64,000 nucleotides of DNA from an uncultured Alphaproteobacteria bacterium (GCA_944393245.1 CALXZM010000003.1:103838-167837), one strand, 5' to 3'; counted from the first letter of the stretch, positions 3,001 through 19,570 are shown. Made by a program: numbers and translations. Notes: a model not told the origin generated them from the letters alone.

Positions 3001-3126
3001 GGCGAATTTGGTATCGGATTATCCGCATTGTATGAAGGAATGGAAATTTCCATAAACTATGATTTGGATTTGCATGAACATTATACATCCCAGACCGGTA
3101 TGGTGAAATTCAGACTGGATTTCTAG
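1..3126 (+). CDS. Autotransporter outer-membrane protein, 5'-truncated by the window edge. Passenger carries Pmp-type GGA[ILV]/FxxN repeats; C-terminal beta-barrel translocator
   Basis: Long ORF running from the window start. Dozens of GGAI(Y/W/A)N and F(T/E/I)(N/G)NS(V/A) repeats. C-terminal ~280 aa show alternating beta-strand pattern ending ...MVKFRLDF. Followed by a 48-bp perfect palindrome terminator. Confidence 0.75.
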   Translation, partial: AIMPAVATVNNPADVENWSGTIVEKTDESVPGGILNIAAGENVGNINAGTVENNKIVLTKTADKGTAEVLGQGAVIYSHGDIAAINGTFKNNSISNTSETATKATANGGAFALYAGTNIGEINGDFIGNSVSSTYSGDGTTEYTSGSQISAGGGAMHIEGQYGNSAVKIGTITGNFIGNSATGDGYANGGAIYIKGGADRAGQQGYLVSVDKIVGNFENNSVVAKTGTSANKKASTGGAISIKNAEKDVTGATVNIVGNFTNNSVTTNGTDALGGAIYNEGALTVSGDFINNIAKSETGAAWGGAINNTGDLVIKGGKMITDNSAGFGGAIWNEGNMTFDLEFDGDNRYIVFGNNQATAELGAGGAIYNKGTIDNLSHALFQYNSAFQGGAINNNISGVINNISASTFANNNAGWSAGGAIRNQGKIGTMSGLIFRENKSGNGGALWNGTAGSVVESLSDVDFIGNIAISDNEKAEQQGGAITNAGRINLISDADFTSNQAGVRGGAIANVAPQGESDNYIKLQDTTFTGNIAGQEGGAIWNTASGVIDFAGDNIFTDNVANGVGNDIHNLGTVNIVSGTTSINGGITGDGTLTIADGATLDIGTATIQQGTLNLDGILAADLINEQAFGHIDVDNFNVGADGKLDLTFGSAGTYDFGGVIASDKITYKDGIYNVDVDGSNIIVSTKTVDEITESANLTTGAAIALVGLANSDNIAMNIASLNAQNALNNGDIEYIENESAKLHAEDKPVAQSVATSVQNQVLSLATSRMAGGAAMGRSGGDLADVEYGAWAQGLMNRTKYADKFNGDTNGIAVGADALIGGKYTIGIGYAYNTTDVNSSTRDTDITSNSLFLYGQYKPNKWYVNAALNYTMANYTEMTTAFGAMFNPEYDVDSFGGQVMTGYDFASGLTPEIGARYLHVSQDAYNNGLFDIASSDTDYLTGVAGLKYAFTIESQARLKFRPEIRAAATYDFMSDAAIANVSVPGAGSYVVTGERLSRLGGEFGIGLSALYEGMEISINYDLDLHEHYTSQTGMVKFRLDF

Positions 3127-3209: not shown

Positions 3210-3920
3210 TTAATCCTTGGTAAAATAGATTTTACGTTGTGATTCAGATACGGATTCCATTTTATCAAATATGCTTTTGGCGGCGGATTCATCAGCCGGT
3301 GCATTTGTAGACGAATTTGAAAAATCCGCACCGTTCAGAACAATTATTCGACTGGGGGTAATATCACCGCCGTTGCATTCGATGTAATATTTTGCCATAT
3401 CGTAATATTTGCCATAACAGTTATTGTTTACGGTCGCAACGTATCCGTAATCGGCCAATTCCTGGCATGTTGGTTGGGCACCATACGTTATTTCACCGTT
3501 TTCCAAATATTCGTCGGCATTGTCCAGTATCCCATTGCACCAAACACGTACGTATTTACCATTAACAGATGCCATTGCACCATTTTCCATGGTTTTACGC
3601 ATACCAAAACAATCGCCATTTAGTAAATCTGTGTCAAAATCTTTATTTATGTTTGTGCCACGTTCTATATCACGTCGACCCATTGGAACAGGTTGATAAT
3701 CGCCACCTGAAACCAATGCTTCGGGACAAATCATTTTCATGCCCCAACAACCCGTTTCATTATCCCACAATTCGCCATCATAACCAATGCCCATTGTTGC
3801 ATAACAATCGGTTGGATCCAGTTTGCACACAGTTGGTTGTTCCCACCATGGAACTGATGCAGCAATTGCACCAGGCGCGGTCAGGGCAAAAATTGCAGGT
3901 ATTATGAATGTTCGTTTCAT
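3210..3920 (-). CDS. Secreted cysteine-rich hypothetical protein (236 aa)
   Basis: Start moved to the internal Met (MKRTFIIPAIFALTAPGAIAAS signal peptide) preceded by GGGAAG RBS. 12 Cys. No recognisable family. Directly downstream of a large Cys-rich family gene on the same strand. Confidence 0.6.
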   Translation of the reverse strand: MKRTFIIPAIFALTAPGAIAASVPWWEQPTVCKLDPTDCYATMGIGYDGELWDNETGCWGMKMICPEALVSGGDYQPVPMGRRDIERGTNINKDFDTDLLNGDCFGMRKTMENGAMASVNGKYVRVWCNGILDNADEYLENGEITYGAQPTCQELADYGYVATVNNNCYGKYYDMAKYYIECNGGDITPSRIIVLNGADFSNSSTNAPADESAAKSIFDKMESVSESQRKIYFTKD

Positions 3921-4001: not shown

Positions 4002-6524
4002 TTATGGTGTAATCTGGGCTGATATAATTCCCTGAATAAACGTTTTATCTGGTTCAGCACAGAAACCCCATTTTGTGTTTGATCCTGTTTCGTCATAGAA
4101 CAATTTGAATAACTTTTGACCAGTTTTGTCATGTTTTTCATCATTGCCATCGTTATCAATCCATTGGGTGGAAACCCATGTCCCGCCCAAGCGTTCACAT
4201 TCTGCTGATAATGCGTTTGCCATATCAACACGAATAGAATCCATTACAATGTTTACATCCTGTAAAACAGTTTCAGGGATTTTGGCACCGGCTGCCCCAG
4301 AAATAATCGCGTCATATTCAGATGGGCGAACACATACCTGGGTCGCATATTTTACCATTTTTTGATATAAACTGCCGGCGTAATCTTCACCACAATCTGT
4401 GTCGGTTTCGACACCGCTTTCACCACCCTGGGGCGGATTTGTACCCCCAGGACACAATGAATCAGTTGGACATTGCAAACATCTGTTCCCAGCCGTTGGG
4501 GTGCCATTGTATATCCATGTGTTGCTGGTTTGCTGTATTGCCATATAGTATCCAGGATTACATGATGTATACATGCGGTATTCCGTACATACATATCCCC
4601 TGGTTTCGGTGGGGATGTCGGGGCTTTGGCCCGTGTTGGGCAATTCTTCCCATTGTTTTTGATTACACCACCAATTAGATGCGTATATTGCGTCACCGGG
4701 TGCGTATACGCGACAGCCATATGGATAAGAATGCAAATTGTCGTTGCTGGGGACGGTGCACATGTCTTGGGCGAATGCTTCCAGTAATGTTTGGCATTGG
4801 GCTTCTAGTTTTTGATCTGTTAAATCGTGCATTGCGGTTAACAGCAAATCCAGGCCGTCGCCATTTGGGTCACCGTACAAATTGCTGCATGCGTACAGTT
4901 TTTCCTGGCATAATTCTTCGGATAATTCCAGACGTGAACCCAATAATAATTCTTCTTGGGCATTGCTAAAATCTTTTAATGATTCACTTTGTTCGTTATA
5001 GCATTGGTTTACAACGTCCAGGCATTCATTTTTTACGTCGCGGATTTTTTCCTGTTGGCCCTGGTATATTTCAACAATTGCCTGGCGCATAAATTCATCC
5101 CAGACTTCATCTGCGATGTCACGGCATGTTTCCAGGCCACGTTCTGCGTATATGCGCTTTTTGTTTAATTCTGAAACAATCATTGTATTATATGCGTTTT
5201 TCAATACATCACCATCCAATGATATTTGATTGCCCAATTGATAAAAGTCACGTGAATATATTGGTTCGCCAGTATCACGATTTAAATATCGGCCCGTTAT
5301 ATCCAGGCAATGAACATAATCTGTGCCACATGCGGTATCAGCCGTTATGTCGGCGCGAACCTGGGCAATACAGTCATTAATTGATGTAGAATTGTGGGCG
5401 TTATAGTTTTCCAAACGTGCCTGGTTCATGTTGCGTTCTGTTTCGCGAATTGTACTGTTGGCCTGAACCAGTTGTGAATCCAAGGCGTTCATCAATAATG
5501 AACAATCGTTTTCAATATACATTCCGTATGCAGATACAACCATGTTCAATGTTGATTGTGATGGGCATTGGGCTGAAACTAAATTTACGCATTGGGCGTG
5601 AACGGCATTGTATAATGCTTCACCAGTCAGGTTGGATATGTTTTGACCAGATGCCAAATCCGTTGTGGCCCATATCTGATTTATGTCGCCCGCAATGTCC
5701 AACGTACCCAATGTGGACAAAGATTGACTTTTAGATGATGATAAAACTTCCCTTATGCCGGCCAATTGTTGGGCGGAATCTGATTTATCTTCGATAATGG
5801 CCAATTCGCCTTCACTGGCGTTTAGCATTGCGTTTACTTCGGCCGCTGTTTTGGGGATAACCTCTATATTTAAATCTGTAAAATCCTGAATTTGGTCCGA
5901 TGCCTGGGACAGGGCGCGTTCGCGTTCCTGGATATCTGTTAACCTGGAAGAACACACGCAGCGGCGGTAAGTGTCGTTGGCGGTGGCACAAAATTGATCC
6001 ATGCATGTAAAATACGCATTGCGACATTGATTATATTCCGTGCCAAATGTATTTGTTACGCTGGATGGGGCAATTGTTGTTGCGCGTGCCGATGATGCGC
6101 GCGCAGTACGGGCAACAGTCCCAGATGTATCACGCGATGTTGAATTACGAACAATTGTATTGTTTGATGTGTTGCGCGCAGATGAATTGTTTTGGCGTAT
6201 TGCGGCCCCGGTTGCGGTGCGGGCAACTGTTGCAGAACGTGATTGGCCTGAACTATCTGTGTTACTGGGTGTGCGCGAATTAGTGTTAGATGTCGTTGGA
6301 CGGGTTATTGTGTTTTGCGCAGTGTTGCGTGCCGTCGTGCCACGCATGGCAATTGTGCCATTTGATGCTTGGTTTGGTGTTCGTGTTGTGCGTGCGATTA
6401 CGGCCGTCGTTTGGTCTGTATTTTGTGTTTGCGGGCGAACAACCGTGTTTGCATCACGTACAGCAGCATCGACATTTGCGATGCCAAATAAACACGCAAT
6501 AACAAAGGACACTATTTTTTTCAT
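4002..6524 (-). CDS. Large secreted Cys-rich coiled-coil protein, family member 1 (840 aa)
   Basis: Signal peptide MKKIVSFVIACLFGIANVDA. Then ~150 aa T/R/N/S low-complexity. Then motif CRNAYFTCMDQFC...CVCSS and coiled-coil. Shares ACGTDYVHCLDITGRYLNRDTGEPI with the 50183-53437 protein. Confidence 0.7.
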   Translation of the reverse strand: MKKIVSFVIACLFGIANVDAAVRDANTVVRPQTQNTDQTTAVIARTTRTPNQASNGTIAMRGTTARNTAQNTITRPTTSNTNSRTPSNTDSSGQSRSATVARTATGAAIRQNNSSARNTSNNTIVRNSTSRDTSGTVARTARASSARATTIAPSSVTNTFGTEYNQCRNAYFTCMDQFCATANDTYRRCVCSSRLTDIQERERALSQASDQIQDFTDLNIEVIPKTAAEVNAMLNASEGELAIIEDKSDSAQQLAGIREVLSSSKSQSLSTLGTLDIAGDINQIWATTDLASGQNISNLTGEALYNAVHAQCVNLVSAQCPSQSTLNMVVSAYGMYIENDCSLLMNALDSQLVQANSTIRETERNMNQARLENYNAHNSTSINDCIAQVRADITADTACGTDYVHCLDITGRYLNRDTGEPIYSRDFYQLGNQISLDGDVLKNAYNTMIVSELNKKRIYAERGLETCRDIADEVWDEFMRQAIVEIYQGQQEKIRDVKNECLDVVNQCYNEQSESLKDFSNAQEELLLGSRLELSEELCQEKLYACSNLYGDPNGDGLDLLLTAMHDLTDQKLEAQCQTLLEAFAQDMCTVPSNDNLHSYPYGCRVYAPGDAIYASNWWCNQKQWEELPNTGQSPDIPTETRGYVCTEYRMYTSCNPGYYMAIQQTSNTWIYNGTPTAGNRCLQCPTDSLCPGGTNPPQGGESGVETDTDCGEDYAGSLYQKMVKYATQVCVRPSEYDAIISGAAGAKIPETVLQDVNIVMDSIRVDMANALSAECERLGGTWVSTQWIDNDGNDEKHDKTGQKLFKLFYDETGSNTKWGFCAEPDKTFIQGIISAQITP

Positions 6525-6627
6525 TATATTATTATATAATGATAGCAAAAATCTGTTTTTATTAAAAGTGATATTTGTTGTAAATGCGGAATTTATAAAA
6601 CAAAACCGTCAATTAAGACGGTTGTTT

Positions 6628-6879
6628 TTATGCGTTTGCAGATTGGTCCGTTGATGGACGATTGCGTTCAACAAATGTTATTCGACCCTTGTCCAAATCG
6701 TATGGGGTCATTTCAACGCGGACGTGTTCACCAACGTTGACCCAGATGCGGGCCTTGCGCATTTTGCCACATACGGTTGCCAATATTTCATGACCGTTTT
6801 CCAATCTGACACGGAACATTGTGTTTGGTAATTTGTCTTCTACAACGCCGCTAAAAACGATAACATCATCTTTTGCCAT
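6628..6879 (-). CDS. infA: Translation initiation factor IF-1 with a short C-terminal extension
   Basis: [40 protein letters not shown]...[14 protein letters not shown] matches the IF-1 S1-like fold. Hairpin terminator downstream at ~6600-6630. Confidence 0.9.
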
Positions 6880-7025
6880 ATATTTTCCTATGTTTTTACT
6901 GTAATTTTTTAACGCAAATTATAATATGCTTTTATAAAAACAAAAGCAAGTTGTTTTTATTATGCTTGCGCGGACAGGCATGTTTTGATAAAATAGTATG
7001 AAATAACAATGTAGGAAGGAAAGTC

Positions 7026-9185
7026 ATGAAGTTAGGAATATTATTCGCTGTATTGTGCTTTATTCCGGGGCTGGCCGATGCAGCAACGCGTGACAGTGCC
7101 AATGTGCGCGTCGGTGTAAACCGTATGGCTCAGGCGGGGGTACATTCGTCGGCAAATATGTCGGTGGATTTGCCCAGTGGTACAAATTCCATGCCTACAT
7201 TAAATATCAAACCGGGTACACCATCATCAGGGGGCGGAACGTCCGATACTGATACAGATAAAGATAATGGGGATTCTGATAATTCGTCATCGCAGGTTCC
7301 AACACCGGAAAGTTGTCGTGACGCGTATCGGGCTTGCATGGACGAATTCTGTTTGTTGGATGAATCAGAGGGTGGACGTTGCGCGTGTTCGTCTAATATC
7401 AATCAATCAAAATCACTGATTCAGGAAATTCAAGAAATTCAGCAAGAGGCTGATTTGCTGTATACCGAGGGTGTAGAACGTGAACAAATGGGTGCCCAGG
7501 CAAAATTAGTTTTCGGTGAAAGTGAAGAGGCGCAAAAAAGTTCACGTGTGTCGGGTATCAATTTTGCAGAATGGATAAACAGCAGTTCAGAAGAGGATGC
7601 GTCCCTGGGGGGTGACAGTGATATTGGTGATCCATTATACGCCATGGCTGCGGAATATTGTGCGGCTGAGTTGGAGGCGTGTGGTGATCGGGCAGAAATG
7701 GAAGAGGTTTTATATTCGCGTTTGATTGTTCAGGATTGTAAAAATTTTGAAACATATCTGAATGATCAAAAGGCCATTGCTGAATCAAATAAACGCACGG
7801 CCGAGGCTGCTGTTCGTCAGGCGCGTTTACAGATGTTGGACACAACGAATAAATACAATCGCGGTGAATGTTTGTTGGCGTATCGTTCATGTATTGCTGA
7901 CAAGGGTGGTTGTGGTGTGAATTTTGAAAACTGTCTGGACGCGGATTTGTTACAGCGTCGTGCAAATGCGTGCGAAAATGTATTGGATCAATGTATGGCG
8001 GTGCGTGAATATGTTTTAAATGATTGGCAGGAAGAGGCCGTAAGCATTTTAGCTGATGCTGAAAAATACGCTGATCGAAATGCGCGTGGTACATGTTTGG
8101 CCCGTATTCAGTTGTGTTTGGAAGACAGTTGTTCCACAGAAACAAATTCTGCGTGTTTGACCGATGTTAATGTTGCGGCGGGAATTTGCCCGGTTATAGA
8201 CGAATGCGAAGCAATGATTCCGGGTATTAAATCTGTGGTGGTTGACAAGTTGGGATATTTGCGCACGCAATTCTGTCAAAATGACGTTGATGCGTGTTTG
8301 CGTGACAGATGTGGTGAAAACTTTACTGCACCGGAATGCATTGGTAAAAATCCGTCGGAAATTGCAGCAATGTGTCCACAGGATATGTTTCCGTCGTGTA
8401 AAAACGAGGGGCAGTTTGACATCATAGTTCAGGCCGCGTTATTACAGATGGATTACCAAATGTTACAGGGATGTCTGAATTATTTTGGTGAACGTTTGGG
8501 GGCGGTTTGCGGAACGGATATGTCCTGTCTGCCGACGGATACACAAATTGCATCATTGACCGCCGTCCCAACAGAGCAGGCAGATTTAGCCAATTTGCGT
8601 GACAGTGTTCGTGCAAATACAAGAAATGCGGTTGATGAATTTTTTGTCCAGTTTGAACAGGATAAAACCGTTGCAGCGTGTCAGGACAGCCAAAAGCCAG
8701 CCGATCGTGAAAGTTTGGGTGACAGTGTGTTTAACAGTGCCAAAATGATTGCCCAAATAAATGCAGAAAATCGTGCTATGCGTGAATTGGAATCCAAGAT
8801 TGCTGAATTGTCACGTCAACAGGATTTAGATGCGGCTGAACAAAACTGTTACAATATGTATCAGGTTGAAACACCGGATGAATCCAGCAAGAATTACAGT
8901 TATATCCGCAGTGTTTCATTTGAACCTGCGTTGCGTAATTGCCATGTTTGCCGTATGCAACAGGTGTGCGAAACAGGTGGACAGAATAAATGGACTGGTG
9001 CCGCACAGGGCGTTGCAGGCGGTTTGGCGGCCGGTGCATCAATGGGAACAATGGTAAATGCCGGTTGGGGTACTTTAATCGGTGGTGTTGTCGGTGCCGT
9101 TGGTGGTGGATTGATGGGGGGCCTGGGCAGTGGTGAAGAAGAATTCTGTCAGGAAATAGAAACCTGTGAAGATATTAATATGTAA
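7026..9185 (+). CDS. Large secreted Cys-rich coiled-coil protein, family member 2 (719 aa). Gly-zipper-like C-terminal segment, tail ...CEDINM
   Basis: AGGAAGGAAAG RBS. Signal peptide MKLGILFAVLCFIPGLADA. Motifs SCRDAYRACMDEFC...CACSS, CGVNFENCLD, ACENVLDQCMAVREYV. C-terminal GGLAAGASMGTMVNAGWGTLIGGVVGAVGGGLMGGLG. Confidence 0.7.
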   Translation: MKLGILFAVLCFIPGLADAATRDSANVRVGVNRMAQAGVHSSANMSVDLPSGTNSMPTLNIKPGTPSSGGGTSDTDTDKDNGDSDNSSSQVPTPESCRDAYRACMDEFCLLDESEGGRCACSSNINQSKSLIQEIQEIQQEADLLYTEGVEREQMGAQAKLVFGESEEAQKSSRVSGINFAEWINSSSEEDASLGGDSDIGDPLYAMAAEYCAAELEACGDRAEMEEVLYSRLIVQDCKNFETYLNDQKAIAESNKRTAEAAVRQARLQMLDTTNKYNRGECLLAYRSCIADKGGCGVNFENCLDADLLQRRANACENVLDQCMAVREYVLNDWQEEAVSILADAEKYADRNARGTCLARIQLCLEDSCSTETNSACLTDVNVAAGICPVIDECEAMIPGIKSVVVDKLGYLRTQFCQNDVDACLRDRCGENFTAPECIGKNPSEIAAMCPQDMFPSCKNEGQFDIIVQAALLQMDYQMLQGCLNYFGERLGAVCGTDMSCLPTDTQIASLTAVPTEQADLANLRDSVRANTRNAVDEFFVQFEQDKTVAACQDSQKPADRESLGDSVFNSAKMIAQINAENRAMRELESKIAELSRQQDLDAAEQNCYNMYQVETPDESSKNYSYIRSVSFEPALRNCHVCRMQQVCETGGQNKWTGAAQGVAGGLAAGASMGTMVNAGWGTLIGGVVGAVGGGLMGGLGSGEEEFCQEIETCEDINM

Positions 9186-9245
9186 TATCGGGGGAATGGC
9201 CCCCATATTGCATATAATACATTTGGTATGACGAGAGAGCATAAA

Positions 9246-11750
9246 ATGAAATCGAAATATATTTTGGCTGCGGTTGTGTGTTCGGGTGCGTTGGCATTGG
9301 CGTTTGATTCATGGGGGCTGACAACCACGGCAAAAAAACAGTCTGCGATTCAGCAGGGGACAACTGTTCGTACCAAGGTACAGGCCACGGGGCTGTATGA
9401 TCAGGCATGTTATGATGCTTATTTTGGTTGTATGGACCAGTTTTGTATTACTGATAATGCCAGTGGTGGTGCATGCAATTGCAGTGATGATGTAAATCAA
9501 TATAATGCAGAATTGGCCGCCATAGAAGATATATTGGATGAAGCGAATCGTTTGCGTACCGAAGAAATAGACCGTATCAAGGCCGGGGCTGATGCTGATA
9601 TTGTGTTTTCTGGTGAACGCAGATATGACGAAGATGGGAATGTTTTATATGATGGCGAATTGAGTGCAGCAGAAGAAAAAGAACAAAAACGTGCGGACCT
9701 GTTGGCTGTCTTTAATACAAATTTATATTCTGAATCAGAAGAAGAGGTTACCACGCAAAGTATAGCCGATATGACCGGACGTGCGTTATATAATGCTGCT
9801 AATGAATTATGTATGGCCCAGATTCCTGATTCCTGTGCGGGGGATATAGTATTTTTACAGCAATTGTATTCGCGCCAAATTGTATCTGATTGTTTGGGGT
9901 ATAAAAATTCTTTGGCGCAACAACGTACAAAGGCTGAAAATGAATTACATGCTGCCGAATCCGAAGTTCGGGTCGCCTTACAGGAAAGCCTGGAAAGTTC
10001 CAACAAGTACGATTTAGGTCAGTGTATGGTTGAATTCAAAAAGTGTATGCAGACCACAGATGCCTGTGGTGAAAATTGGGAAAATTGTGTTGCTGAAATT
10101 GCGGCTGAAAATATGCAGGCAAATGATGATACGCAAAAATTGGTTGCATATACCGTAACCGATGATACGGAAACGTTTGGTCTGGCGCAAAGTACATTGG
10201 ACAGTTTGAATAACAAGCGACCCATTTGCGAAAATGTTTTGGACCAATGTGTTGCCGTGCGTAACCAGGTATGGCCCAGTTTCCTGCGTGAAGCGGCCCC
10301 AACAATCAAGGTGGCCGAAGACCAGGCAGAATCAAAATTCCGTCAGTCTTGTTTGACGTCGATTTCCGACTGTATACAAAATGCGTGTCGCGATGATATT
10401 GCGGGCAAGGGTGTTGCCACAATGGATGCATGCTTGTCACGCCCAGATATGGCGCGCAGTTTTTGCAAGGTCGAAATTGAACCCTGTGAACGTATGGAAC
10501 CACTGATTTGGGGGTATGTCGAAGATAAATTGGCCGCCATGCGGGTTGATGCATGTACCCAGGAAGTCAAAGACTGCTTTACCGCGGATACACGGTGCGG
10601 GCCTAATTTTGAAAATTGTATCGGTATGGATTACGAATATATTCATGACATTTGCCCGATTGACAGCCTGGTTGTGTGCAAGGCAAATAATCCGGCATTT
10701 TCCATGGATGATTTGGACGATATGTTAATGGGACTGTATTTGAATATTGATAATTCGATGATGGAACAGTGCCAGAATGTTGTCGATCAAAAAATGGCTG
10801 AAATTTGTGGCAGTACAACCGACTGTAACAGATTTGCGGCCGATGATACAATTGGCACCGGATCACTGCGCAGCCAAAAGGACGGGGACGTTTATCGCGT
10901 AACTGGCATGATATCATTTGGCAGCATAATAATGGGTGACAGTGATGGCGAAACTATCACTGATGAAGATGGTGAAACCGTGCGTTTAGGACCAGGCGAA
11001 ATCGGGGTTGGCGAATATATCGCCAAAATCCGCGAAAATAACAAAGATGTTCCAAATGCAGATGCCATTATCACCACAATAGAAGAAGAATTAAATAATA
11101 TCGCCGGTACTATTAACCGTACCATTGAAATGATTGAACAAGATCCTGAAATTCAATATTGTGTTAATGGACGCGATTTGTCCCAGATTACAGGCGAAAA
11201 GGGGGCCGCAACCACTGGACGTTTCCCGAATTTGTTAAATCAAGTCAAAATGCAAATCGCGACATCTGCACTGCGACAGGCACAGGATAACTATAATAAT
11301 AAATTAAATACCGCCATTGCAGAAGCAACGCAAAATGCTTCCACTGATTTGGCTCAATATATGTGCCAGAAAATAGCAGAAAATGGTGGCGCGGGCGGCA
11401 CATCGGTAAGTGCATCTACACCACTGACGACACCATATTCAATCAGTTATGACGTTGGGGCTGGATTATCAACCGAAGATTTGGCCCAGGGCGGCGCAGG
11501 CGTTTTGCAGGCTGATGGCGTAACGTTTACAAACAAAGGCTATTTGGGCGGTTCCAGTATGAATGGTGGCGGTATAACAAAAACTGTTCGTGCGATATTT
11601 AGTCGCGATACCAGAACGTGCCGTATTTGCACACAAACTGTTACACAGGATTGCAAAACATCGGGCAGTGTCAGTTGGTTCCACAATAATCGTAACACCA
11701 GTTGCACAACCAACGCGTCCGAAGAAGTGTGTGAAGATATTGTTATGTAA
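9246..11750 (+). CDS. Large secreted Cys-rich coiled-coil protein, family member 3 (~834 aa). Tail ...CEDIVM
   Basis: Start chosen at MKSKYIL (GAGAG RBS); alternative ATG at 9228. Motifs ACYDAYFGCMDQFC...CNCSD, ACGENWENCV, PICENVLDQCVAVRNQV. Hairpin terminator 11753-11786. Confidence 0.65.
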   Translation: MKSKYILAAVVCSGALALAFDSWGLTTTAKKQSAIQQGTTVRTKVQATGLYDQACYDAYFGCMDQFCITDNASGGACNCSDDVNQYNAELAAIEDILDEANRLRTEEIDRIKAGADADIVFSGERRYDEDGNVLYDGELSAAEEKEQKRADLLAVFNTNLYSESEEEVTTQSIADMTGRALYNAANELCMAQIPDSCAGDIVFLQQLYSRQIVSDCLGYKNSLAQQRTKAENELHAAESEVRVALQESLESSNKYDLGQCMVEFKKCMQTTDACGENWENCVAEIAAENMQANDDTQKLVAYTVTDDTETFGLAQSTLDSLNNKRPICENVLDQCVAVRNQVWPSFLREAAPTIKVAEDQAESKFRQSCLTSISDCIQNACRDDIAGKGVATMDACLSRPDMARSFCKVEIEPCERMEPLIWGYVEDKLAAMRVDACTQEVKDCFTADTRCGPNFENCIGMDYEYIHDICPIDSLVVCKANNPAFSMDDLDDMLMGLYLNIDNSMMEQCQNVVDQKMAEICGSTTDCNRFAADDTIGTGSLRSQKDGDVYRVTGMISFGSIIMGDSDGETITDEDGETVRLGPGEIGVGEYIAKIRENNKDVPNADAIITTIEEELNNIAGTINRTIEMIEQDPEIQYCVNGRDLSQITGEKGAATTGRFPNLLNQVKMQIATSALRQAQDNYNNKLNTAIAEATQNASTDLAQYMCQKIAENGGAGGTSVSASTPLTTPYSISYDVGAGLSTEDLAQGGAGVLQADGVTFTNKGYLGGSSMNGGGITKTVRAIFSRDTRTCRICTQTVTQDCKTSGSVSWFHNNRNTSCTTNASEEVCEDIVM

Positions 11751-11873
11751 ATAAATATCCCGTCACAATGGCGGGATATTTTGTTATGTGGGTGGGGGGG
11801 CAGAAAAATTCCTAGACATTTTATGAAATAAATGTGATATTATATATGCGTAAACGAACAAAAGGGGTAATAC

Positions 11874-12242
11874 ATGAAAAAAATTTCCATTTTTGCTGCT
11901 GTTTGCACATTGGTTGGCGGCGCGGCAATGGCTGATTTTCAGCCGAATAATCCACATCAGGCGGGTGGCTTTGTCGGTGGAAACGAGGCTATTGTTACAG
12001 TAAAGCAGGTAAAAGAAATGCGTGATGATGTTCCAGTTATTGTCCAGGGACATATCGTTCAGCGTATGGGCGATGAAAAGTATTTGTTCGAAGACGCAAC
12101 CGATTCAGTTACTGTTGAAATAGATGACAAGGATTGGCGTGGTCAGACAGTTACACCGTCAGATACGGTTAAATTGTATGGCGAGGTTGATGCCGGCATG
12201 TTCAAAACAGAAATTGATGTCGGTTATGTTGAAAAATTGTAA
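11874..12242 (+). CDS. BOF (YgiW/YdeI) family periplasmic OB-fold protein
   Basis: Signal peptide plus the conserved ...FEDATDSVTVEIDDKDW...KLYGEVD... core typical of the YgiW/YdeI OB-fold family. Terminator hairpin 12243-12273. Confidence 0.7.
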   Translation: MKKISIFAAVCTLVGGAAMADFQPNNPHQAGGFVGGNEAIVTVKQVKEMRDDVPVIVQGHIVQRMGDEKYLFEDATDSVTVEIDDKDWRGQTVTPSDTVKLYGEVDAGMFKTEIDVGYVEKL

Positions 12243-12296
12243 TAAAAAATCCCGCCAACCGCGGGATTTTTTAGTTACTGGTTATTCGTGGCTTGT

Positions 12297-13192
12297 ATAT
12301 ACCCTGTCATTGCGAGCGTAGCGAAGCAATCCATTATTTACCTTTGTGTTCCATAATGTGTCGCTCGGGTACTGCGTACCCTGTGCGTATCCTCGTATTT
12401 GTTCAAACTGCGCAATTGCTTGTTTTCACATACTCGGATTCATCGCGAGTGAAACGAAGCAATCCAGTAAATATGCGCGACTTTGATTATAAATGGATTG
12501 CCGCGCCACTAACGTGGCTCGCAATGACAAGGTTGGGTGCATAATTGTATTATTATCACAGATATTACGAATTGTGTCATTGCGAGCGTAGCGAAGCAAT
12601 CCATATGCTGTTACCCGTTATTTGTAAGTCGTATGCCTTTTGTAATTGCAAGCAACGCGAAGCAATCCCTTCTTTATCATCGTGTTCCATACTGCGTACC
12701 CTGTGCGTATCCTCGTATTTGTTCAAACTGCGCTATCGCTTGTTTTCACATACTCGGATTCATTGCGAGCCACATTAGTGGCGTGGCGATCCAGGGTTGC
12801 AATATGTCACGCGTCGCGCGGACAATATTTACTGGATTGCTTCGCTACGCTCGCAATGACAAATAGATTTATGGCACAGCATATACTTATTTATGGGGCA
12901 TTTGGTGTTGTACCTTTCAAATATTTTTAATATCTCAGTATAACAATCCTAATATACTTACCCGCACCCAACTTTGTCATCGCGAGCCACGTTAGTGGCG
13001 TGGCGATCCAGGGTTGCAGTATGTCGCGCGTCGCGCGGACAATATTTACTGGATTGCTTCGCTACGCTCGCAATGACAAAGGAAAGACACAAGTCACGAA
13101 TAGCTAGCCATGGGTAACTAGTAAACGTATCTGGATTGCTTCGCGTTGCTCGCAATGACAAAGGAAAGACACAAGTCACGAATAGCGAGCCA
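12297..13192. repeat. Cluster of nested short palindromic repeat elements (MITE/REP-like): ~10 copies of a 27-bp core GTCATTGCGAGCGTAGCGAAGCAATCC in both orientations, plus two ~80-bp and two ~95-bp duplicated units
   Basis: Core at 12305-12331, 12575-12601, variant at 12642-12668. Reverse copies 12834-12860, 13051-13077, 13132-13158. Partials at 12445-12465, 12516-12528, 12761-12771, 12976-12988. 80-bp unit at 12372-12450 and 12692-12770. 95-bp unit at 12766-12862 and 12983-13079. Confidence 0.8.
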
Positions 13193-13254
13193 ACGGCACA
13201 GGTAACGGTGGTGGTCCGGCGGTAAAGAAAAATCCCGCCAGTTGGCGGGACGTT

Positions 13255-15954
13255 TTATGATGCGCATTTATTATTAGAAAATTGTACTTCTACCTTGCGG
13301 CAATTTTTATCATACTTGCTGGTGCTGTTACATTGGGTCGAACCAACACCGCTGGCTGTTATGTTTGACGCGGACAGCCCACCAGATACCAGTGCATTTT
13401 TAACCGCATTTGCACGTCGTTCGGATAGTGGCTGATTTATTGCATCGGTACCGCTGTTATCTGTGTGACCGGTAACGGTAATACAATAATCTGTATTGGT
13501 GCCAACCTGGGCTTTAACGTCTGTGACAAAGGTGTTCAGAACACTTTGTGCATCGGATGTTAAATCTGACGAGTTCAATTCAAACAGGTTGCCTGCATTC
13601 AATGTAATTGTTGGAATTTCGACAACTGGTTGAAGAATTTCGGTTATTGCGGGAATCGTCTGCTTTGTAACGCATTGACCCTGGGCATTGATTTCGTGTG
13701 TTGCGGTCGGGCAGTGGCATTTTGGTGTTGCGTCACTGCTTAAAGTATATCCGTCGGTGCAACTGCAATCACCGGTGTTCGGGTCAACGGTGACGTGTCC
13801 GGCGGAAGTATCACATTTTGCCGTTACGGTTGGTGCTGTAGGGGTAACACACGTATTGTTTTCACCGGGTAATGTTCCGTCTGGACAGTCACAGGTGTTA
13901 TTCACAGAAACCATATCGCCGGGACAGGATTCGCACATATTTGTATTTGCGTTATGTATGTATTTTGTGTTTGTGCATACGCAGTTCGGATATGTTCCAG
14001 TTGCGTCAGACGGACATTTAGCCGTAGATTCAGCGTCCGGCAATTTTGCGGTATTGTCGCGTAATTTCTTTAATGGTTCATATTTTGCCAGAATTTCGTC
14101 AGAACTTTCGCGGGGTTTGTCACCAACATAGTTCGTTAAAACATTGCCGGCAATCCCAACCAATGCACCTGCACCGGCAACAATCGCACCCGTCGTTAAT
14201 TGCGATGCTGTTTCCGCACGCTGCGCCGCCCATTCTGCCGCATCCGAACCAGTCGGATTGGACAACGCACGCGATATTGACGCATAGGCACCATCGGTTA
14301 TACCAGTCGATACATTGTCATATAATCCAGATGTTGCCGCATCCAGAATAACTTCGGATTCTATACCAGGGGCCATCCCCAGGGACTCTTTACGCGTTTT
14401 TAAATCTGCCGCCAATGTCGTATATTCGTTATATATTGGCAATAATACGTTTGCACCGGGTAAAACGATTCCTGTTTCACCACCAGTAATGGTCATGCCC
14501 GCACCATAATCGCATTTGAATGTTGCCAGATATGCCACCATATCACGTTCTGCGTCCGCATCAGCATTTTGTTCGGCCAGTGCGGATGCAACCTGCATTC
14601 CGCCAATACCCATTGCACCCATTGATGCGCCACCAACCATGCGGTTTGCCAACGATTGTTCACGTTCACGCATCGCATCGGCGTTTTCCTGTAATTCCGC
14701 GATTTGCTTTTGGGCATCTGCCTGGGACAGGGTCGGTTCGATGCAAGATTTTTTATCATTGCTGATGCTGTATCCGTCGCGACAGGCGTCTATAATACAT
14801 ACCTCAACCCCGGCGGTGGAATCGTATTCACGATGTGCAGATGTAGCATTTTCCGGCATCGGACTGCAATTGCCAGATATAGCAATACATTTGCCGTCCG
14901 ATACTTCGTACCCGGCATCGCATTCAGTTGCGTGACAGACGCCAAGCTTTAGCTCACCGGCCGTTGCGTGTTCGATTTGTTGAACTTGGGCGTCGGTACA
15001 GGGACCTTCTCTGACATCACAGGCGGTGCCAGCATCGTTTAGTAAATATCCATTGTTACACTTTTTAATTTTGCATTTTAGTGTATTGTTTTCCCAAACA
15101 TATTCGGATTTTGATGCATTTGCATCGGTTGCGGTGCATTCCTTGCCAACCTGGTCGACACATTGTGCAGTATTTCCTGTTCCAACCAATTTGTAACGGT
15201 CAGATTCACATTCGGTTGGGTAACAACCATTATCTTTGTCAGTTCTTGGCTCTGCTTTTTTGGCATGTAACTTTTTTAATTGTTCGGGACCACAGGCAAT
15301 AGATATTGCAGCGGGCAAGTTTTCTGTTTCCGCTTCTAATGTTACTGTTATAGAATTATCTGTTTTTGATATTGGAACATTTTTTGTTTTATAGAAGGCA
15401 AAAGAAATTTCCAACTCTGTTACGTCGTTTGGAACATTTATAGAAAATTTACCATCATTGTTTGTATATGTATAATCTGAATTATTCAGTTTTTGGTTAT
15501 CTGGCTTAACTATTTTGACGGTGGCACCCGGCATAGGGGTGTTATCACTATCATATACCGTGCCGGTAATTAAATACGTCGCCGATGCAGATGAATTAGC
15601 AGAATCTGTCGCGGTTGATGCAGGTGTTGTGTCGGGTGTGGACGTTGAAGCATCTGAATCAGTAGTTAGATATCCGTATGCACAACGATGCCCAATTCCA
15701 GTATAAGTACATTCATAATATTTGCCATTGGCTTCTATTGAGCATGTCAACAATTCACACTCTATGGATGCATCCAGAACAGCGGATAGATCTGTACCAG
15801 TTAATTGATTTGTATTCGCTAAATCTGAGATATACTTACATAATTCTGATTTTGGTTTGGATAAATTGTCCCCCTGACAATCGGGGTGTGTTGTTTGGCC
15901 GAATGCGGGCAGGGCGAATAATACTGCAAAAAATCCGAACAAATACTTTTTCAT
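13255..15954 (-). CDS. Large exported OmpA-family protein: signal peptide, carboxypeptidase-regulatory-like domain, Cys-rich repeats, C-terminal OmpA peptidoglycan-binding domain
   Basis: N-terminal MKKYLFGFFAVLFALPAFGQ. YLITGTVYDSDNTPMPGATVKIV... CarbopepD_reg-like. Repeated C..C..GY......C modules. C-terminal TGHTDNSGTDAINQPLSERRANAV motif of OmpA_C. Terminator on the minus strand at 13224-13254. Confidence 0.75.
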   Translation of the reverse strand: MKKYLFGFFAVLFALPAFGQTTHPDCQGDNLSKPKSELCKYISDLANTNQLTGTDLSAVLDASIECELLTCSIEANGKYYECTYTGIGHRCAYGYLTTDSDASTSTPDTTPASTATDSANSSASATYLITGTVYDSDNTPMPGATVKIVKPDNQKLNNSDYTYTNNDGKFSINVPNDVTELEISFAFYKTKNVPISKTDNSITVTLEAETENLPAAISIACGPEQLKKLHAKKAEPRTDKDNGCYPTECESDRYKLVGTGNTAQCVDQVGKECTATDANASKSEYVWENNTLKCKIKKCNNGYLLNDAGTACDVREGPCTDAQVQQIEHATAGELKLGVCHATECDAGYEVSDGKCIAISGNCSPMPENATSAHREYDSTAGVEVCIIDACRDGYSISNDKKSCIEPTLSQADAQKQIAELQENADAMREREQSLANRMVGGASMGAMGIGGMQVASALAEQNADADAERDMVAYLATFKCDYGAGMTITGGETGIVLPGANVLLPIYNEYTTLAADLKTRKESLGMAPGIESEVILDAATSGLYDNVSTGITDGAYASISRALSNPTGSDAAEWAAQRAETASQLTTGAIVAGAGALVGIAGNVLTNYVGDKPRESSDEILAKYEPLKKLRDNTAKLPDAESTAKCPSDATGTYPNCVCTNTKYIHNANTNMCESCPGDMVSVNNTCDCPDGTLPGENNTCVTPTAPTVTAKCDTSAGHVTVDPNTGDCSCTDGYTLSSDATPKCHCPTATHEINAQGQCVTKQTIPAITEILQPVVEIPTITLNAGNLFELNSSDLTSDAQSVLNTFVTDVKAQVGTNTDYCITVTGHTDNSGTDAINQPLSERRANAVKNALVSGGLSASNITASGVGSTQCNSTSKYDKNCRKVEVQFSNNKCAS

Positions 15955-15971
15955 ATTTATTGTTGCAAACT

Positions 15972-17759
15972 TTAACGCGATGATGATACGCTACGTGTTG
16001 ATCCTGGGCGTTGTTTTAGCGTTAGTTGGCTTTGGGGTGTTGCCTTGGCTTTTTCCCGTATAGCAGAGTCATCAACAGGTTGTAGTAGTCCATTTAACTC
16101 TTGATTTATTTTCAATTCTGCATTTCTTAAATCTTGTTCCATTTGTTTATCAACTTCTGCATTTGTTTGTGCGAATTGTTCGGCAATTGATTTATCCGAT
16201 TCTTCTTTTTGTTGTTCCAATTTATCCGTATCTATGTCATGTAAAACATCACCATCTTTATCAGGGTTATTCCCCCCCCCTGTATCGCCCGGTATATCGG
16301 GAACTTCGACAGTCATGTTTTCCACTTCGGTGGTTATTGCAGCCAGGTCTGCTTCTGTTTCGGCGTCCATTTGTTTGTCAGTGGCATCGCTTGTTTTTTT
16401 GGCATTTCGTTCAATTTTTTTCTCAGATTTACGTGTGTCTACCTGTTTTTCATCGATTTCTTGTGGGGTATAGTTTTCGTCGTATTCCTCTTGGGCATCT
16501 TTTAATGCCTTGTCAGCCTTTTGCCGGTCAATTGCACGGTCAATCGCGCCGGATGTTATTGCGCCCGCCGCAACACCCAAACCAGATCCCAATAATGCAG
16601 ATGATGCAGATGATTGTGCGCGTGTTAAGCGGTATGCGTTTTCCATAAATGTTGTGACGTCAATGCCAAACCAATTGGGTGTACAATCAAATGTGCCACC
16701 CGCATATAACTTTTTAGATGCAAACAGTGTTGTGTCATCGCCCGCATAGAATTCAACAGTGTATACGCATGTAAATGTGCGTTCATCAAATGTCGCCCCC
16801 AGTGTTTGACATTGGGCAATCATGTCATCGCGTAATTCGTACAGGCGTTGTTCGTCGCGCTGAATTTGTTCTTCGGCGTCAACGCGCAGATTGGCAAATA
16901 CCTGCATCGCGCGCGATGCCAGGCCACTGTCCTGTTGTATGCAATTGTCTGCAATTGTTTTGCATTTTGCGATTGCGGCATCACCCGCGGATTTCCCCAG
17001 GCAACCGCCAAATGTTGTCCCGCATTCCGTTACAATACAATCATTATACTGGTTACCACAATTCAAAACCGCATTATATGATGCCAATTGTGCGTTCATA
17101 TCGCGGTCTGATTTTATTTCCGCGGCAAACAACCGATATTCTTCACCAGTACAGGTGGCGTCAATGGAATTGCGGCACGAATCCATTTTGTTGCCCCATG
17201 CGGTGTCGGTGTCGCCACTGCAATTTGTAAAATCGGTACCGCATTTTTCGCGCATACATGCGCGCAATCCCATGTCACACGCGTTTTGATTGCCGGTCAG
17301 TACCGCGTTCGCGGTTGTTATCGCGCTTTGTGCGTCCAATTCAGCACGTTGGGCCGCGACCAATTCGGCCAATGTTTGGGCCGATGTGTCAGTGGCAGAT
17401 GTGCTGGAATATGATAACAGTTCGTCAAATTCCGCAGATTTGTTTTCTATTTCAATCCGATCCGTTGTCGTGGTGTCATCTGTTTCCGGGGGCGTGTCCG
17501 CATTCGTTTCGGTTGTGTCCGACTGAGTGGTGTTTTGGGACGGTGTTGTTACAGTTGTTGGCATGCGGCCGGATGTGTTCGTGCGTGTCGTTGATACCGT
17601 GGGACGGGCCGAAACACTGGTGCGTGAAACAACCGCGCCATATGAATAATCAGCCACACCGCATATTGCAACCAACCCCGCGATTATCGCAGTGCGTGAT
17701 ATTTTTGTGGGTCTGAAAAAAGTTTTTTGCGTGTTATTCATTGTGTTTAATTGTAACAT
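15972..17759 (-). CDS. Secreted Cys-rich coiled-coil protein, family member 4 (595 aa)
   Basis: Signal peptide; T/S/R low-complexity; motifs ACMREKCGTDFTNC and CGNQYNDCIVTECGTTFGGC; acidic coiled-coil C-terminal half. Start codon 5 bp after the stop of the upstream family gene. Confidence 0.6.
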   Translation of the reverse strand: MLQLNTMNNTQKTFFRPTKISRTAIIAGLVAICGVADYSYGAVVSRTSVSARPTVSTTRTNTSGRMPTTVTTPSQNTTQSDTTETNADTPPETDDTTTTDRIEIENKSAEFDELLSYSSTSATDTSAQTLAELVAAQRAELDAQSAITTANAVLTGNQNACDMGLRACMREKCGTDFTNCSGDTDTAWGNKMDSCRNSIDATCTGEEYRLFAAEIKSDRDMNAQLASYNAVLNCGNQYNDCIVTECGTTFGGCLGKSAGDAAIAKCKTIADNCIQQDSGLASRAMQVFANLRVDAEEQIQRDEQRLYELRDDMIAQCQTLGATFDERTFTCVYTVEFYAGDDTTLFASKKLYAGGTFDCTPNWFGIDVTTFMENAYRLTRAQSSASSALLGSGLGVAAGAITSGAIDRAIDRQKADKALKDAQEEYDENYTPQEIDEKQVDTRKSEKKIERNAKKTSDATDKQMDAETEADLAAITTEVENMTVEVPDIPGDTGGGNNPDKDGDVLHDIDTDKLEQQKEESDKSIAEQFAQTNAEVDKQMEQDLRNAELKINQELNGLLQPVDDSAIREKAKATPQSQLTLKQRPGSTRSVSSSR

Positions 17760-17763
17760 CCCA

Positions 17764-18636
17764 TTAATTCAATAATTCGCATGCCGTATCATAGAATTCA
17801 CACAGCAGGTTTGCGTTTACCCGTTCTGATTCATATCCGTCACCGCACTTGTTCGGCATGTTGCGTTCGCATACCGTTTCAATGCATGCGTCGCGACCAG
17901 CATTGTTTGTACATGTGGCGCGCGCATCAGTCAATTTTTGTTCGCGGGCGTTTTGATAACCTGAAACCAAATTCGCAATCAGCGCATCGGCATTTTCTAT
18001 GGCGGTATCACGCGCGTTTGTTAATGTCGTGCGTATTGTTGCAAAATATGCGTCACAACCAGTTGCCTGTACACTGCAGGTTGAAAAGAAGTTATTGAAT
18101 GCGGCGTTATCTTCGCATGCGGCCCAATTCGCACCACAGCGATTCGCATCAATCATACATGCGGTAATTGATGAACGGCAACTGGATTCATTGGCCGTCG
18201 ATTTGTTTGCGTCGGCAATTGTGGCCGTCATTTGTGCACTGACGCCTGCCGCACGACAGGACTGTTCAATCAATTTATCATATACGTCGGATACATCATC
18301 CGGGGTACAACCATCAATTTTTTTTATGCACTGTTCCGTTGCCCAGACATATCGTTGACCCGGGTCGGTCGGCGCATATTCTAATTCGTCTTCGCTTAAA
18401 GTATAGCGGGCGGATGCACCCAGAGATAAACTGCGCATGCCGGTGCGTGTGGATGGTGGGGTACCCGCACTGGATGTGCCACAATACTGGCACCGCGCGG
18501 CCGGATTGGATGATACGTTTATCGCGCATACGGAATCCAGGCAACGGGTTAAATTCATTTGTGAACATGTCGCCGCAGATGCTATGCCAGGCGCAACAAT
18601 CATTCCAGATATAAAAAACAGGATGCTTTTTTTCAT
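17764..18636 (-). CDS. Secreted Cys-rich protein, family member 5 (short, ~290 aa)
   Basis: Start moved to internal MKKSILFFISGMIVAPGIASA (signal peptide, AGAGAGA RBS). Motifs CSQMNLTRCLDSVC and ACMIDANRCGANWAACED match the family core. Confidence 0.6.
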   Translation of the reverse strand: MKKSILFFISGMIVAPGIASAATCSQMNLTRCLDSVCAINVSSNPAARCQYCGTSSAGTPPSTRTGMRSLSLGASARYTLSEDELEYAPTDPGQRYVWATEQCIKKIDGCTPDDVSDVYDKLIEQSCRAAGVSAQMTATIADANKSTANESSCRSSITACMIDANRCGANWAACEDNAAFNNFFSTCSVQATGCDAYFATIRTTLTNARDTAIENADALIANLVSGYQNAREQKLTDARATCTNNAGRDACIETVCERNMPNKCGDGYESERVNANLLCEFYDTACELLN

Positions 18637-18775
18637 TTCTCTCTTTGCATAAAAGTATACCAAAAAATAATATTTACTGCAAAGCAAAATAATATGATTT
18701 ATAAAATAAACAAAATGTATTGACAAATAAATATTTTTGTCCTATATTATCAGTGTAACAAACAAAGGATTACAA

Positions 18776-19444
18776 ATGAACTGGAAAAGAGTTATTGGGG
18801 TCAGTGCCGGTGTAATCGGTGCGATTGCCGTAATATTTTGTGTAAAAGAATGCAGGGATAACAGTGTAACAGAACAGGTTCAGGATGCACGTAATACCAT
18901 CAATGAGGCAATAACGCAAATTGATGCAGTGCGCAAGCAAAATGATTCTTTGCGTAATGAAACGGCAAAATGGCAAGATTCTGTTGATTTTTACAAGAAA
19001 AATTTGGCTGACTGTGAAAAAAGCAAACAGAAAACTCAGCACAAGCCTGTAAATACTAAACCAGCTAGTACAAACAAGCCAGCCGTGGAAAAAGACACTG
19101 TTTGGATTGTAAAAGAAACTGTGCGTGGAAATGGGTCTGATAACACACACACCACAACAATTCGTATGGAACAAAATACACGCAATAATGAAAATATTGT
19201 TGTGCAAAATGAAAAAGAAGCAGGCAGTGATACTGAAATTGTCCTGGGGCAGGGTGCCGTAAATGACGGTAACATCATTGTTAATAACGGTGGCCATGTC
19301 CATATCGATGGTAATAAACAGGCGGTTGATTCACTGCGTGTGGTGGTTGATTCACTGAAACAGGGTGCGTCAAAAACATTTGCGGCGTCTGCCAGCAGTG
19401 TGGTTGTTGTTAAAAAAGTACAAACATATAAACGTACCCGTTAA
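18776..19444 (+). CDS. Membrane-anchored coiled-coil hypothetical protein
   Basis: AAGGA RBS before MNWKRVIGVSAGVIGAIAVIFCV (single TM); coiled-coil; Asn/Val-rich C-terminus. No family recognised. Confidence 0.5.
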   Translation: MNWKRVIGVSAGVIGAIAVIFCVKECRDNSVTEQVQDARNTINEAITQIDAVRKQNDSLRNETAKWQDSVDFYKKNLADCEKSKQKTQHKPVNTKPASTNKPAVEKDTVWIVKETVRGNGSDNTHTTTIRMEQNTRNNENIVVQNEKEAGSDTEIVLGQGAVNDGNIIVNNGGHVHIDGNKQAVDSLRVVVDSLKQGASKTFAASASSVVVVKKVQTYKRTR

Positions 19445-19570
19445 TACATATATATTTATAGTATGTATAATGAACCCGGCTGATATTTCAGCCGGGTTTT
19501 GTTATATAGTTTTTTTCTGGACATATAATTTGATTGTATGTTAAGATATTTTGTACAGAGAGAATTGTTC

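Follow-up and report, generated by a model that had tools for sequence, protein, structure and literature searches.

What kind of proteins are encoded by the run of Cys-rich exported-protein genes at 3.2-18.7 kb, with one more at 50.2-53.4 kb, of a 64,000-nucleotide stretch of DNA from an uncultured alphaproteobacterium (GCA_944393245.1 CALXZM010000003.1:103838-167837; the whole stretch is called the window), and what might they do for the cell? A first-pass annotation had described five paralogous, large, secreted Cys-rich coiled-coil proteins clustered at 4002-18636 and a sixth copy at 50183-53437, could not place them in any known family, and suggested a surface layer, an adhesin or a host-interaction system. 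The analysis reported here supports a new protein family with four full-length members, one compact remote member and one relative at the level of a single module. With a probability of about 0.5, its members are exported, disulfide-rich, helical proteins that would serve envelope structure or contact.

All six open reading frames (ORFs), here lettered A to F, were found where the annotation had placed them, with A, D, E and F on the minus strand and B and C on the plus strand, and their sizes span the 290-1084 amino acids (aa) that had been reported. Cys accounts for 2.7-6.9% of their residues. The letters G and H denote neighbouring genes, and modules 1 and 2 are two Cys patterns treated below, the full form of module 2 being called the 4-Cys module.

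A, 4002-6524, minus strand: 840 aa; signal-like N-terminus, Arg/Thr/Ser-rich cationic linker, Cys-rich helical core and variable Cys-rich C-terminal region, the latter bearing a CxxGYY...CxxCP motif.
Core domain of A, 4689-6044, minus strand: aa 161-612; matched by the core-profile hidden Markov model at 1e-205.
B, 7026-9185, plus strand: 719 aa; behind a signal-like N-terminus come a short acidic linker rich in S/D/G and a core that holds module 1 and two 4-Cys modules (C282, C417); at the C-terminus, CxxC is followed by a double glycine-zipper and a CEDINM end.
Glycine-zipper-like hydrophobic hairpin of B, 8976-9131, plus strand: aa ~651-702; putative membrane anchor.
C, 9246-11750, plus strand: 834 aa; a very short linker separates the signal-like N-terminus from the core, which holds module 1 and two 4-Cys modules (C260, C437); the C-terminal CxxC...CEDIVM end is one that B has too.
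D, 15972-17759, minus strand: 595 aa; T/S-rich linker, two 4-Cys modules (C161, C234), more invariant Cys, one glycine-zipper segment (aa 388-406) and an acidic/Lys-rich tail; the true start may be the Met of MNNTQK, 6 codons in.
E, 17764-18636, minus strand: 290 aa; compact, with a degenerate form of module 1, a single 4-Cys module and a helix of 65 residues.
F, 50183-53437, minus strand: 1084 aa; closest paralogue of A, encoded outside the cluster with pth on one side and tRNA-Leu on the other; linker cationic and of Arg/Thr/Ser type (aa 27-214), core (aa 215-660) and Cys-rich C-terminal region of 424 aa.

Comparison of all proteins with each other by BLASTP linked A to F (2.9e-58), B to C (1.5e-61), A to C (2e-21), C to F (1e-19), B to F (1e-13) and A to B (1.5e-11). 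The four-way alignment is collinear over a core of ~440 aa that contains 18 invariant Cys (residues 167-604 of A), and by these alignments A, B, C and F are unambiguously full-length paralogues. HMMER searches of the ORFs of the window with core profiles built from 4 or 159 sequences detected neither D and E nor G, H or any other ORF, and D and E were still not seen by the core profiles with --max at E ≤ 10. In profile-profile alignment with hhalign, E, represented by 46 homologues, scored 88.9% against the core (E=2.4e-6); the 192 aligned columns are collinear and pair Cys with Cys. With the core profile of 159 sequences the score was 85.8%. Because the alignment is collinear and keeps the Cys in register, E is regarded as a compact, remote member of the family. 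It consists of the degenerate module 1, a Y..C..C / Y..IEQxC segment, one 4-Cys module, two terminal Cys pairs and one very long helix. D, represented by 38 homologues, scored 86.7% against E (E=4.4e-6) and matched the core weakly (18-47% over 41-109 columns), within the 4-Cys module; hhalign did not yield a collinear alignment of D to the core beyond that module. Judged by these profiles, D is a relative at the module level only, and the proposal of five paralogues plus one was therefore upheld for A, B, C and F and, in a remote form, for E; D joins them through a repeated Cys module and not along its length. G and H were set aside as members because the core HMMER profiles fail to detect them.

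A, B, C and F all carry module 1, Cx6Cx4Cx9CxC with the string CMD[EQ]FC, in full agreement with the strings quoted earlier (CRDAYRACMDEFC among them); in E it is degenerate (CSQMNLTRCLDSVC...CQYC), and D has no module 1. Of module 2, the full 4-Cys form (Cx6Cx4-6CGx5-8C) is found in seven copies, two each in B, C and D and one in E, and A and F carry a 3-Cys derivative; every CGxN[FWL]xxC string that had been quoted (CGVNFENC and others) is there. The 414 six-frame ORFs of the window were scanned for both patterns, and expected numbers were derived from shuffles within ORFs. The module 1 pattern Cx6-7Cx4Cx9-11Cx1-2C gave 5 matches (A, B, C, F and E) versus 0.25 expected, the 4-Cys form 7 versus 0.2 expected, and neither pattern appeared in the remaining six-frame ORFs of the window. 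Compared unit by unit, the 4-Cys modules scored 90.5% (C_u1-C_u3), 90% (B_u1-C_u3), 95% (C_u3-E_u1), 89% (E_u1-D_u1) and 81% (D_u1-D_u2), the module-level matches of D spanning 67-89%. These scores show that the 4-Cys module is a repeat and the unit of homology by which D is linked to the rest of the family.

Searches of Pfam and NCBIfam at E ≤ 1 assigned none of the six proteins to a family and returned only sub-threshold glycine-zipper matches for B and noise for E; the neighbour G likewise matched no family. Profiles of the core, E and D found nothing below E 0.3 among PDB sequences, and the predicted models had no Foldseek match in the PDB. Pfam searches of the 47 longest family representatives yielded three matches, each to a single member: Ephrin_rec_like (1.9e-8), the Listeria-Bacteroides repeat (Flg_new, 3.8e-6) and DUF7631. 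The open-access literature on Enterousia, on Rs-D84 and on Cys-rich proteins of reduced gut Alphaproteobacteria does not describe the family. The initial impression that the proteins could not be placed was thus borne out, and the family is rated new in kind because it falls outside every known family and fold tested; as a protein family it appears to be new, being undescribed in Pfam-A, NCBIfam, the PDB and the open-access papers searched.

The host is, to judge from its proteins, a Candidatus Enterousia-like alphaproteobacterium of the order Rs-D84: C shares 82% identity with a hypothetical protein from Ca. Enterousia intestinigallinarum, which confirms the alphaproteobacterial host that had been predicted. 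The window has a GC content of ~43%, so that the genome can be called low-GC only in a moderate sense. Members of Rs-D84, an uncultured order that includes Enterousia, have genomes of ~0.75-1.0 Mb without a tricarboxylic acid cycle, respiration or standard transporters, and a partner-dependent lifestyle has been proposed for them (PMC12306168). A core-profile search of 1.84 billion cluster representatives retrieved 862 metagenomic clusters (50% identity) at E ≤ 1e-3 and 543 at E ≤ 1e-30. Ten distant representatives that were looked up came from Proteobacteria or metagenomes, and the two that were named were both called 'hypothetical protein'. Among the matches and cluster members listed, a functional name did not occur. 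Among the top 150 representatives, 82 clusters were A-like and 61 F-like; B-like and C-like proteins form fewer clusters because they are more conserved. A scan of species genomes found at least 569 relatives, the best 80 of which lie in metagenome-assembled genomes (MAGs) of gut Alphaproteobacteria or Proteobacteria, including a circular MAG of 958,618 bp; the two exceptions, bins labelled Bacteroides fragilis and Muribaculaceae, were taken as mis-binned contigs. The family seems to be lineage-specific, occurring in Candidatus Enterousia and related gut alphaproteobacterial MAGs of the Rs-D84 type. A phage or plasmid origin was considered and rejected, as IMG/VR viral contigs and PLSDB plasmids contained no relatives.

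Synteny was read from the best 80 loci of the at least 569 relatives, as far as the flanks reach, and brings in the two neighbouring genes:

G, 3210-3920, minus strand: 236 aa; exported (signal-like), 9 Cys; directly downstream of A; a conserved neighbour and not a family member.
H, 13255-15954, minus strand: 899 aa; exported (signal-like), Cys-rich; last gene of the close-packed E-D-H; associated and not a family member; contains CarboxypepD_reg, EGF-like CxxGY repeats, glycine-zipper segments and a C-terminal OmpA-like peptidoglycan-binding domain.

The order G<-A<- | ->B->C is kept wherever the flank reaches, in about 70 of the 80 species genomes. A, B and C each occur in 80/80 loci, and G stands beside A in 69/80; D-E and the adjoining H recur in the six loci in which all three were found. 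Orthologues numbered 68 for A (50-75% identity), 76 for B (64-82%) and 79 for C (53-82%). In A, B, C and G, each mature Cys is retained at 94-100% among 68-79 species-level orthologues whose overall identity is 50-82%: in B all 36 of 36 are conserved to 97-100%, and the 9 of G are invariant, as are the 20 of E among its 46 homologues. Identity per block amounts to 0.70-0.94 in the cores, 0.21-0.38 in the N-terminal linkers and 0.41-0.60 in the C-terminal region of A; within A alone, core blocks reach 0.70-0.84 versus 0.23-0.38 in the linker. The conserved G-A/B-C synteny and a core identity far above that of the linkers argue for a structural rather than a variable role.

How do the proteins leave the cytoplasm, and what shape may they assume? 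Each of the six starts with a hydrophobic segment followed by an AxA-like small-residue motif (VDA/A, ADA/A, ASA/A, AHA/D); judged by hydropathy and by eye, the signal peptides first annotated on all of them are putative. A Cys at position 11-12 within the signal peptide is invariant in the four-way alignment of A, B, C and F. It was considered as a lipoprotein Cys and rejected: its conservation among orthologues is only 41-49%, the lipobox positions misfit, and the AxA sites come after it. Twin-arginine and CxxCH motifs are absent from the proteins. The T/S/R/N-rich linkers noted earlier were found in A (42-165), F (30-199) and D (38-99). In A, aa 21-160 carry a net charge of +13 (17 Arg, no Lys) and in F aa 27-214 carry +16 (23 Arg, no Lys); the cationic charge of these linkers stems from Arg only, and the cores have a net charge of -36 to -50. 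Hydrophobic glycine-zipper segments occur in B, D and H. The conserved C-terminal module shared by B and C, CxxC...C...CEDI[NV]M, encloses in B a double glycine-zipper hairpin of ~50 aa, which is strongly conserved among orthologues and exceeds 1.3 in a Kyte-Doolittle window at 679-702. AlphaFold2 returned all-alpha models with helices of 40-65 residues, with a pLDDT of 65.5 and a pTM of 0.37 for the core (4-sequence alignment) and 76.3 and 0.40 for E (46 sequences). The heptad-rich coiled coil of the first-pass annotation survives as long predicted helices; in a crude test of the a/d heptad register, F 252-286 scored 0.68 versus a shuffle 95th percentile of 0.58, and the other proteins did not rise above their shuffles. 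Because only this one segment beats the shuffles, 'coiled coil' should be read, on the models, as long helices packed in a bundle and not as an established canonical coiled coil. At present model quality the fold would be a generic elongated helical bundle without a recognisable relative.

The genes are arranged in three units. E and D are separated by 4 nucleotides (nt) and D and H by 17 nt, head-to-tail on one strand with a terminator-like hairpin after H, an arrangement that has the appearance of an E-D-H operon. B and C make up the second unit, with C followed at once by a terminator-like hairpin (11753-11781), and A and G a third, in which G may be a functional partner of the family. In the database protein P0395, on a 4.9-kb contig, ~445 residues from the N-terminus of D are joined to the C-terminal, glycine-zipper/OmpA-like half of H; the fusion may reflect a real deletion or an assembly artefact. 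Genes for envelope proteins are frequent in the window (BOF protein, SurA-like, SLT, PBP1-type, alpha-2-macroglobulin). At 28711-29544 (plus strand) the window encodes a DsbA-like, membrane-anchored thioredoxin whose active site is CPFC; it has an unusual N-terminal extension of ~100 aa with two hydrophobic segments, and a flavodoxin gene follows immediately downstream (29669-30175). This protein is plausibly the oxidase of the Cys-rich proteins.

Taken as exported envelope-structural or contact proteins, the family members would pass through the following steps. After Sec-dependent export and cleavage at the AxA-type sites, the proteins would be folded oxidatively, plausibly by the DsbA-like CPFC thioredoxin, into elongated helical bundles whose long helices, predicted with medium confidence, would be pinned by many disulfides. 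They would probably be retained at the envelope, B and D by their glycine-zipper segments and the E-D-H set by the OmpA-like domain of H, as suggested by sequence, gene order and the D::H fusion. There, more speculatively, they could jointly form a structural scaffold or coat with the conserved acidic cores as framework, and the Arg/Thr/Ser tails of A and F together with the variable Cys-rich C-terminal domains could touch anionic envelope polymers or a partner cell. Disulfides are supported by the 94-100% fixation of the Cys, by the lack of twin-arginine and CxxCH motifs and by the DsbA-like protein in the window. The link to the envelope is supported by the E-D-H spacing, the OmpA-like domain of H, the P0395 fusion, the zippers and the envelope-gene neighbours. 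Outward or contact-type ends are suggested by the Arg-only cationic linkers on acidic cores and by the one Ephrin_rec_like and the one Listeria-Bacteroides repeat member among the 47 representatives. A surface-layer, adhesin or host-interaction role, as originally proposed, is plausible; the evidence reaches as far as export and association with the envelope, and since Sec signals are the only export signals and no secretion route was identified, a periplasmic location would fit equally well.

Several points weigh against an envelope-structural or contact role. The signal peptides were judged by eye and hydropathy, the AlphaFold2 models attain medium confidence only (pTM 0.37-0.40), and the glycine-zipper matches lie below family thresholds. 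Ephrin_rec_like and Flg_new each occur as a fusion in just one protein, the gene for the DsbA-like protein is 10 kb distant, and the window revealed no route of secretion to the cell surface. The numbers of mature Cys are even in B (36), C (36) and E (20) and odd in A (29), D (15), F (43), G (9) and H (41), which means that not all Cys can reside in intramolecular disulfides; conserved unpaired Cys could form intermolecular bonds. Furthermore, 9-18 disulfides per protein are not an obvious expectation for the periplasm of a gut anaerobe.

That the shared motifs merely reflect chance or the composition of Cys-rich, low-complexity ORFs might be suspected from the failure of the HMMER core profiles to detect D and E, and short Cys-dominated hhalign matches can be inflated. 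The pairwise E-values of 1e-11 to 1e-61 among A, B, C and F contradict this suspicion, as do the 543 database clusters matched at E ≤ 1e-30, the seven and five module copies where 0.2 and 0.25 are expected with none elsewhere in the window, and the 192 collinear columns, Cys on Cys, between E and the core. The motifs are thus backed by alignment statistics, a point on which the annotation had made its proposal depend; an artefact has become a negligible prospect, and one that in the case of A, B, C, F and E has been refuted. Ligation of metals or cofactors (Zn, Fe-S or other) by the Cys, which would make the proteins periplasmic redox or metal-storage proteins, is very unlikely. Regular spacings such as Cx6Cx4C and CxC would in principle permit chelation, the Cys count is odd in several members, and many disulfides are less expected in an anaerobe without a respiratory chain. 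However, export loaded with a cofactor is improbable because the N-termini are of the Sec type without twin arginines, neither CxxCH nor a classical Fe-S spacing occurs, no His is conserved alongside the Cys, metalloprotein families and folds gave no match, and the window encodes a DsbA-like oxidoreductase.

Among the roles outside the cytoplasm, that of variable surface antigens or adhesins, which would evade immunity or phages by diversification in the manner of a VSG-like coat, draws on the many 50% clusters over which A-like and F-like proteins are spread (82 and 61 of the top 150), on the rapid evolution of linkers and C-terminal regions with many indels, and on a cassette by which strains of 99% identity differ in the tail of D. 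It is nevertheless quite unlikely: there is one syntenic orthologue per paralogue and genome with no large silent archives, per-block identity of the cores is 70-94% from species to species with all Cys fixed, and B, C and E are well conserved (54-82% identity). Release as soluble effectors or membrane-active proteins is likewise an unlikely role; as disulfide-stapled helical bundles, comparable to saposin-like or pore-forming proteins, they would extract nutrients from a partner or host cell for a bacterium without standard transporters. Pfam saposin and toxin families did not match; great size (up to 1084 aa) and strong acidity also speak against such a role, as do the putative membrane anchors of B and D, the apparent operon of D and E with a peptidoglycan-binding protein, and the failure to identify a secretion system in the window. 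An envelope-structural or contact role remains the preferred reading.

Other features of the locus were noted in passing. The tail of D (15972-16500) was compared with the database protein P0391, which is 99% identical over the first ~80% of D and departs after 'VEVPDIP'; P0391 has a Cys-rich EGF-like cassette in place of the acidic Lys/Glu/Asp tail, and both proteins end in ...STRSV(S/L)SSR, which looks like a strain-level exchange of cassettes. Between the BOF gene and the stop codon of H, ~1 kb of non-coding DNA (12243-13254) is filled with an imperfect palindrome of ~30 nt, TGTCATTGCGAGCGTAGCGAAGCAATCCA, in both orientations. At up to 3 mismatches there are 5 copies versus 0 expected, accompanied by more diverged copies and by direct repeats of 80-104 nt, and it occurs nowhere else in the window; by its structure it looks like an element of the repetitive extragenic palindrome (REP) or miniature inverted-repeat transposable element (MITE) type. 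A Pmp-repeat autotransporter (7-3126, plus strand) adjoins G, and beside F lies a gene for a Pom-like outer-membrane protein of the Protochlamydia Pom family (53720-55198, plus strand), so that two chlamydia-like types of envelope protein are found in an alphaproteobacterium. Beyond E, a 235-aa membrane-anchored protein with no confident family match (18737-19444) precedes a 1270-aa protein, predicted to be exported, with weak N-terminal ankyrin-repeat matches and no other family (19538-23350, plus strand). At 56727-63984 (minus strand), a gene for alpha-2-macroglobulin (1620 aa in the window, an ORF that may extend past its end) lies directly upstream of one for a PBP1C-type penicillin-binding protein. 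Alpha-2-macroglobulin and PBP1C form a classical periplasmic pair, here retained despite a genome of ~0.9 Mb.

Enterousia and its Rs-D84 relatives are widespread, uncultured gut Alphaproteobacteria with genomes of ~0.9 Mb and are suspected to depend on partners (PMC12306168). The six genes take up ~13 kb, by simple addition of the ORF lengths roughly 1.4% of such a genome. As A, B and C are syntenic in about 70 species-level genomes with every mature Cys fixed, the family is one of the signature investments of the lineage. It is an obvious candidate, and so far the most concrete one, for the machinery that builds the envelope of these cells or makes contact. The lack of a match to Pfam, NCBIfam and solved folds makes the proteins concrete targets for antibodies, cryo-electron tomography and recombinant structure work, and the module CxxxxxxCMD[EQ]FC provides a simple sequence marker for the lineage. 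Should their function turn out to be a mundane one, such as that of a periplasmic scaffold, a new domain family will have been gained; should they attach the cell to a partner, they would give access to the biology of an entire uncultured order.

Which known systems come closest? Saposin-like proteins differ in Cys pattern and size, have no Pfam match to the family, and score within noise. The three-helix-bundle coat proteins of trypanosomes (VSG, ISP, HpHbR) are among the closest known systems. The Hcp proteins of Helicobacter, which consist of Sel1-like repeats, are similar in being exported alpha-helical repeat proteins in which recurring Cys pairs staple helices, and in occurring as several paralogues in a host-associated bacterium; membership of the family in Sel1 (PF08238) repeats or an SLR/TPR-type fold was tested and not found. 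Glycine-zipper lipoproteins of the YiaD, SlyB/Pcp and Rickettsia 17-kDa antigen type share the G/A/S-rich hydrophobic zippers seen in B, D and H. H combines a zipper segment with an OmpA-like domain, as does YiaD, its match to YiaD covering the OmpA-like part only. The zipper regions scored 14-17 bits and none exceeded the cut-offs of 27-175; the sub-threshold matches of B were to Gly-zipper_YMGG, Bacteriocin_IIc and YiaD_Gzip_OmpA, with 15.3 bits versus a cut-off of 28.9 for PF13441 and 14 bits versus 175 for NF053611. Composition and hydropathy of the B segment are still consistent with a zipper. Unlike the zipper lipoproteins, the proteins have no lipobox, and the zipper is an appendage and not the core that defines the family.

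In Chlamydia, the rigidity of the envelope comes from disulfide cross-linking. The chlamydial OmcB/OmcA proteins, with the Pmp proteins and MOMP, resemble the present family as sets of Sec-exported Cys-rich envelope proteins in a reduced-genome bacterium that depends on a partner or host, and the window likewise has a Pmp-repeat autotransporter and a Pom-like outer-membrane protein. There are also differences. OmcB is beta-rich, whereas the Enterousia proteins are predicted to be all-alpha, and in contrast to Chlamydia peptidoglycan machinery is present (PBP1-type, SLT, OmpA-like). The two sets are unrelated in sequence: Chlam_OMP6, Chlam_OMP3 and DUF11 matched none of the six proteins at E ≤ 1 and none of the 47 representatives at E ≤ 0.001. 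The chlamydial proteins are joined by intermolecular disulfides into a detergent-insoluble outer-membrane complex. Carried to its end, the comparison leads to a proposal that is, as a whole, unlikely: the six proteins with G and H would make up a disulfide-cross-linked exoskeleton or attachment layer specific to Rs-D84/Enterousia, a convergent, all-helical counterpart of the chlamydial outer-membrane complex that would stabilise the envelope and dock the cell to its partner. The Arg/Thr/Ser tails and the EGF/ephrin-receptor-like ends would then be the contact elements, and the host a Patescibacteria-like, transporter-poor cell. New as the family appears to be, the biological theme is, by analogy, familiar: Cys-rich exported envelope proteins in a partner-dependent bacterium with a reduced genome.

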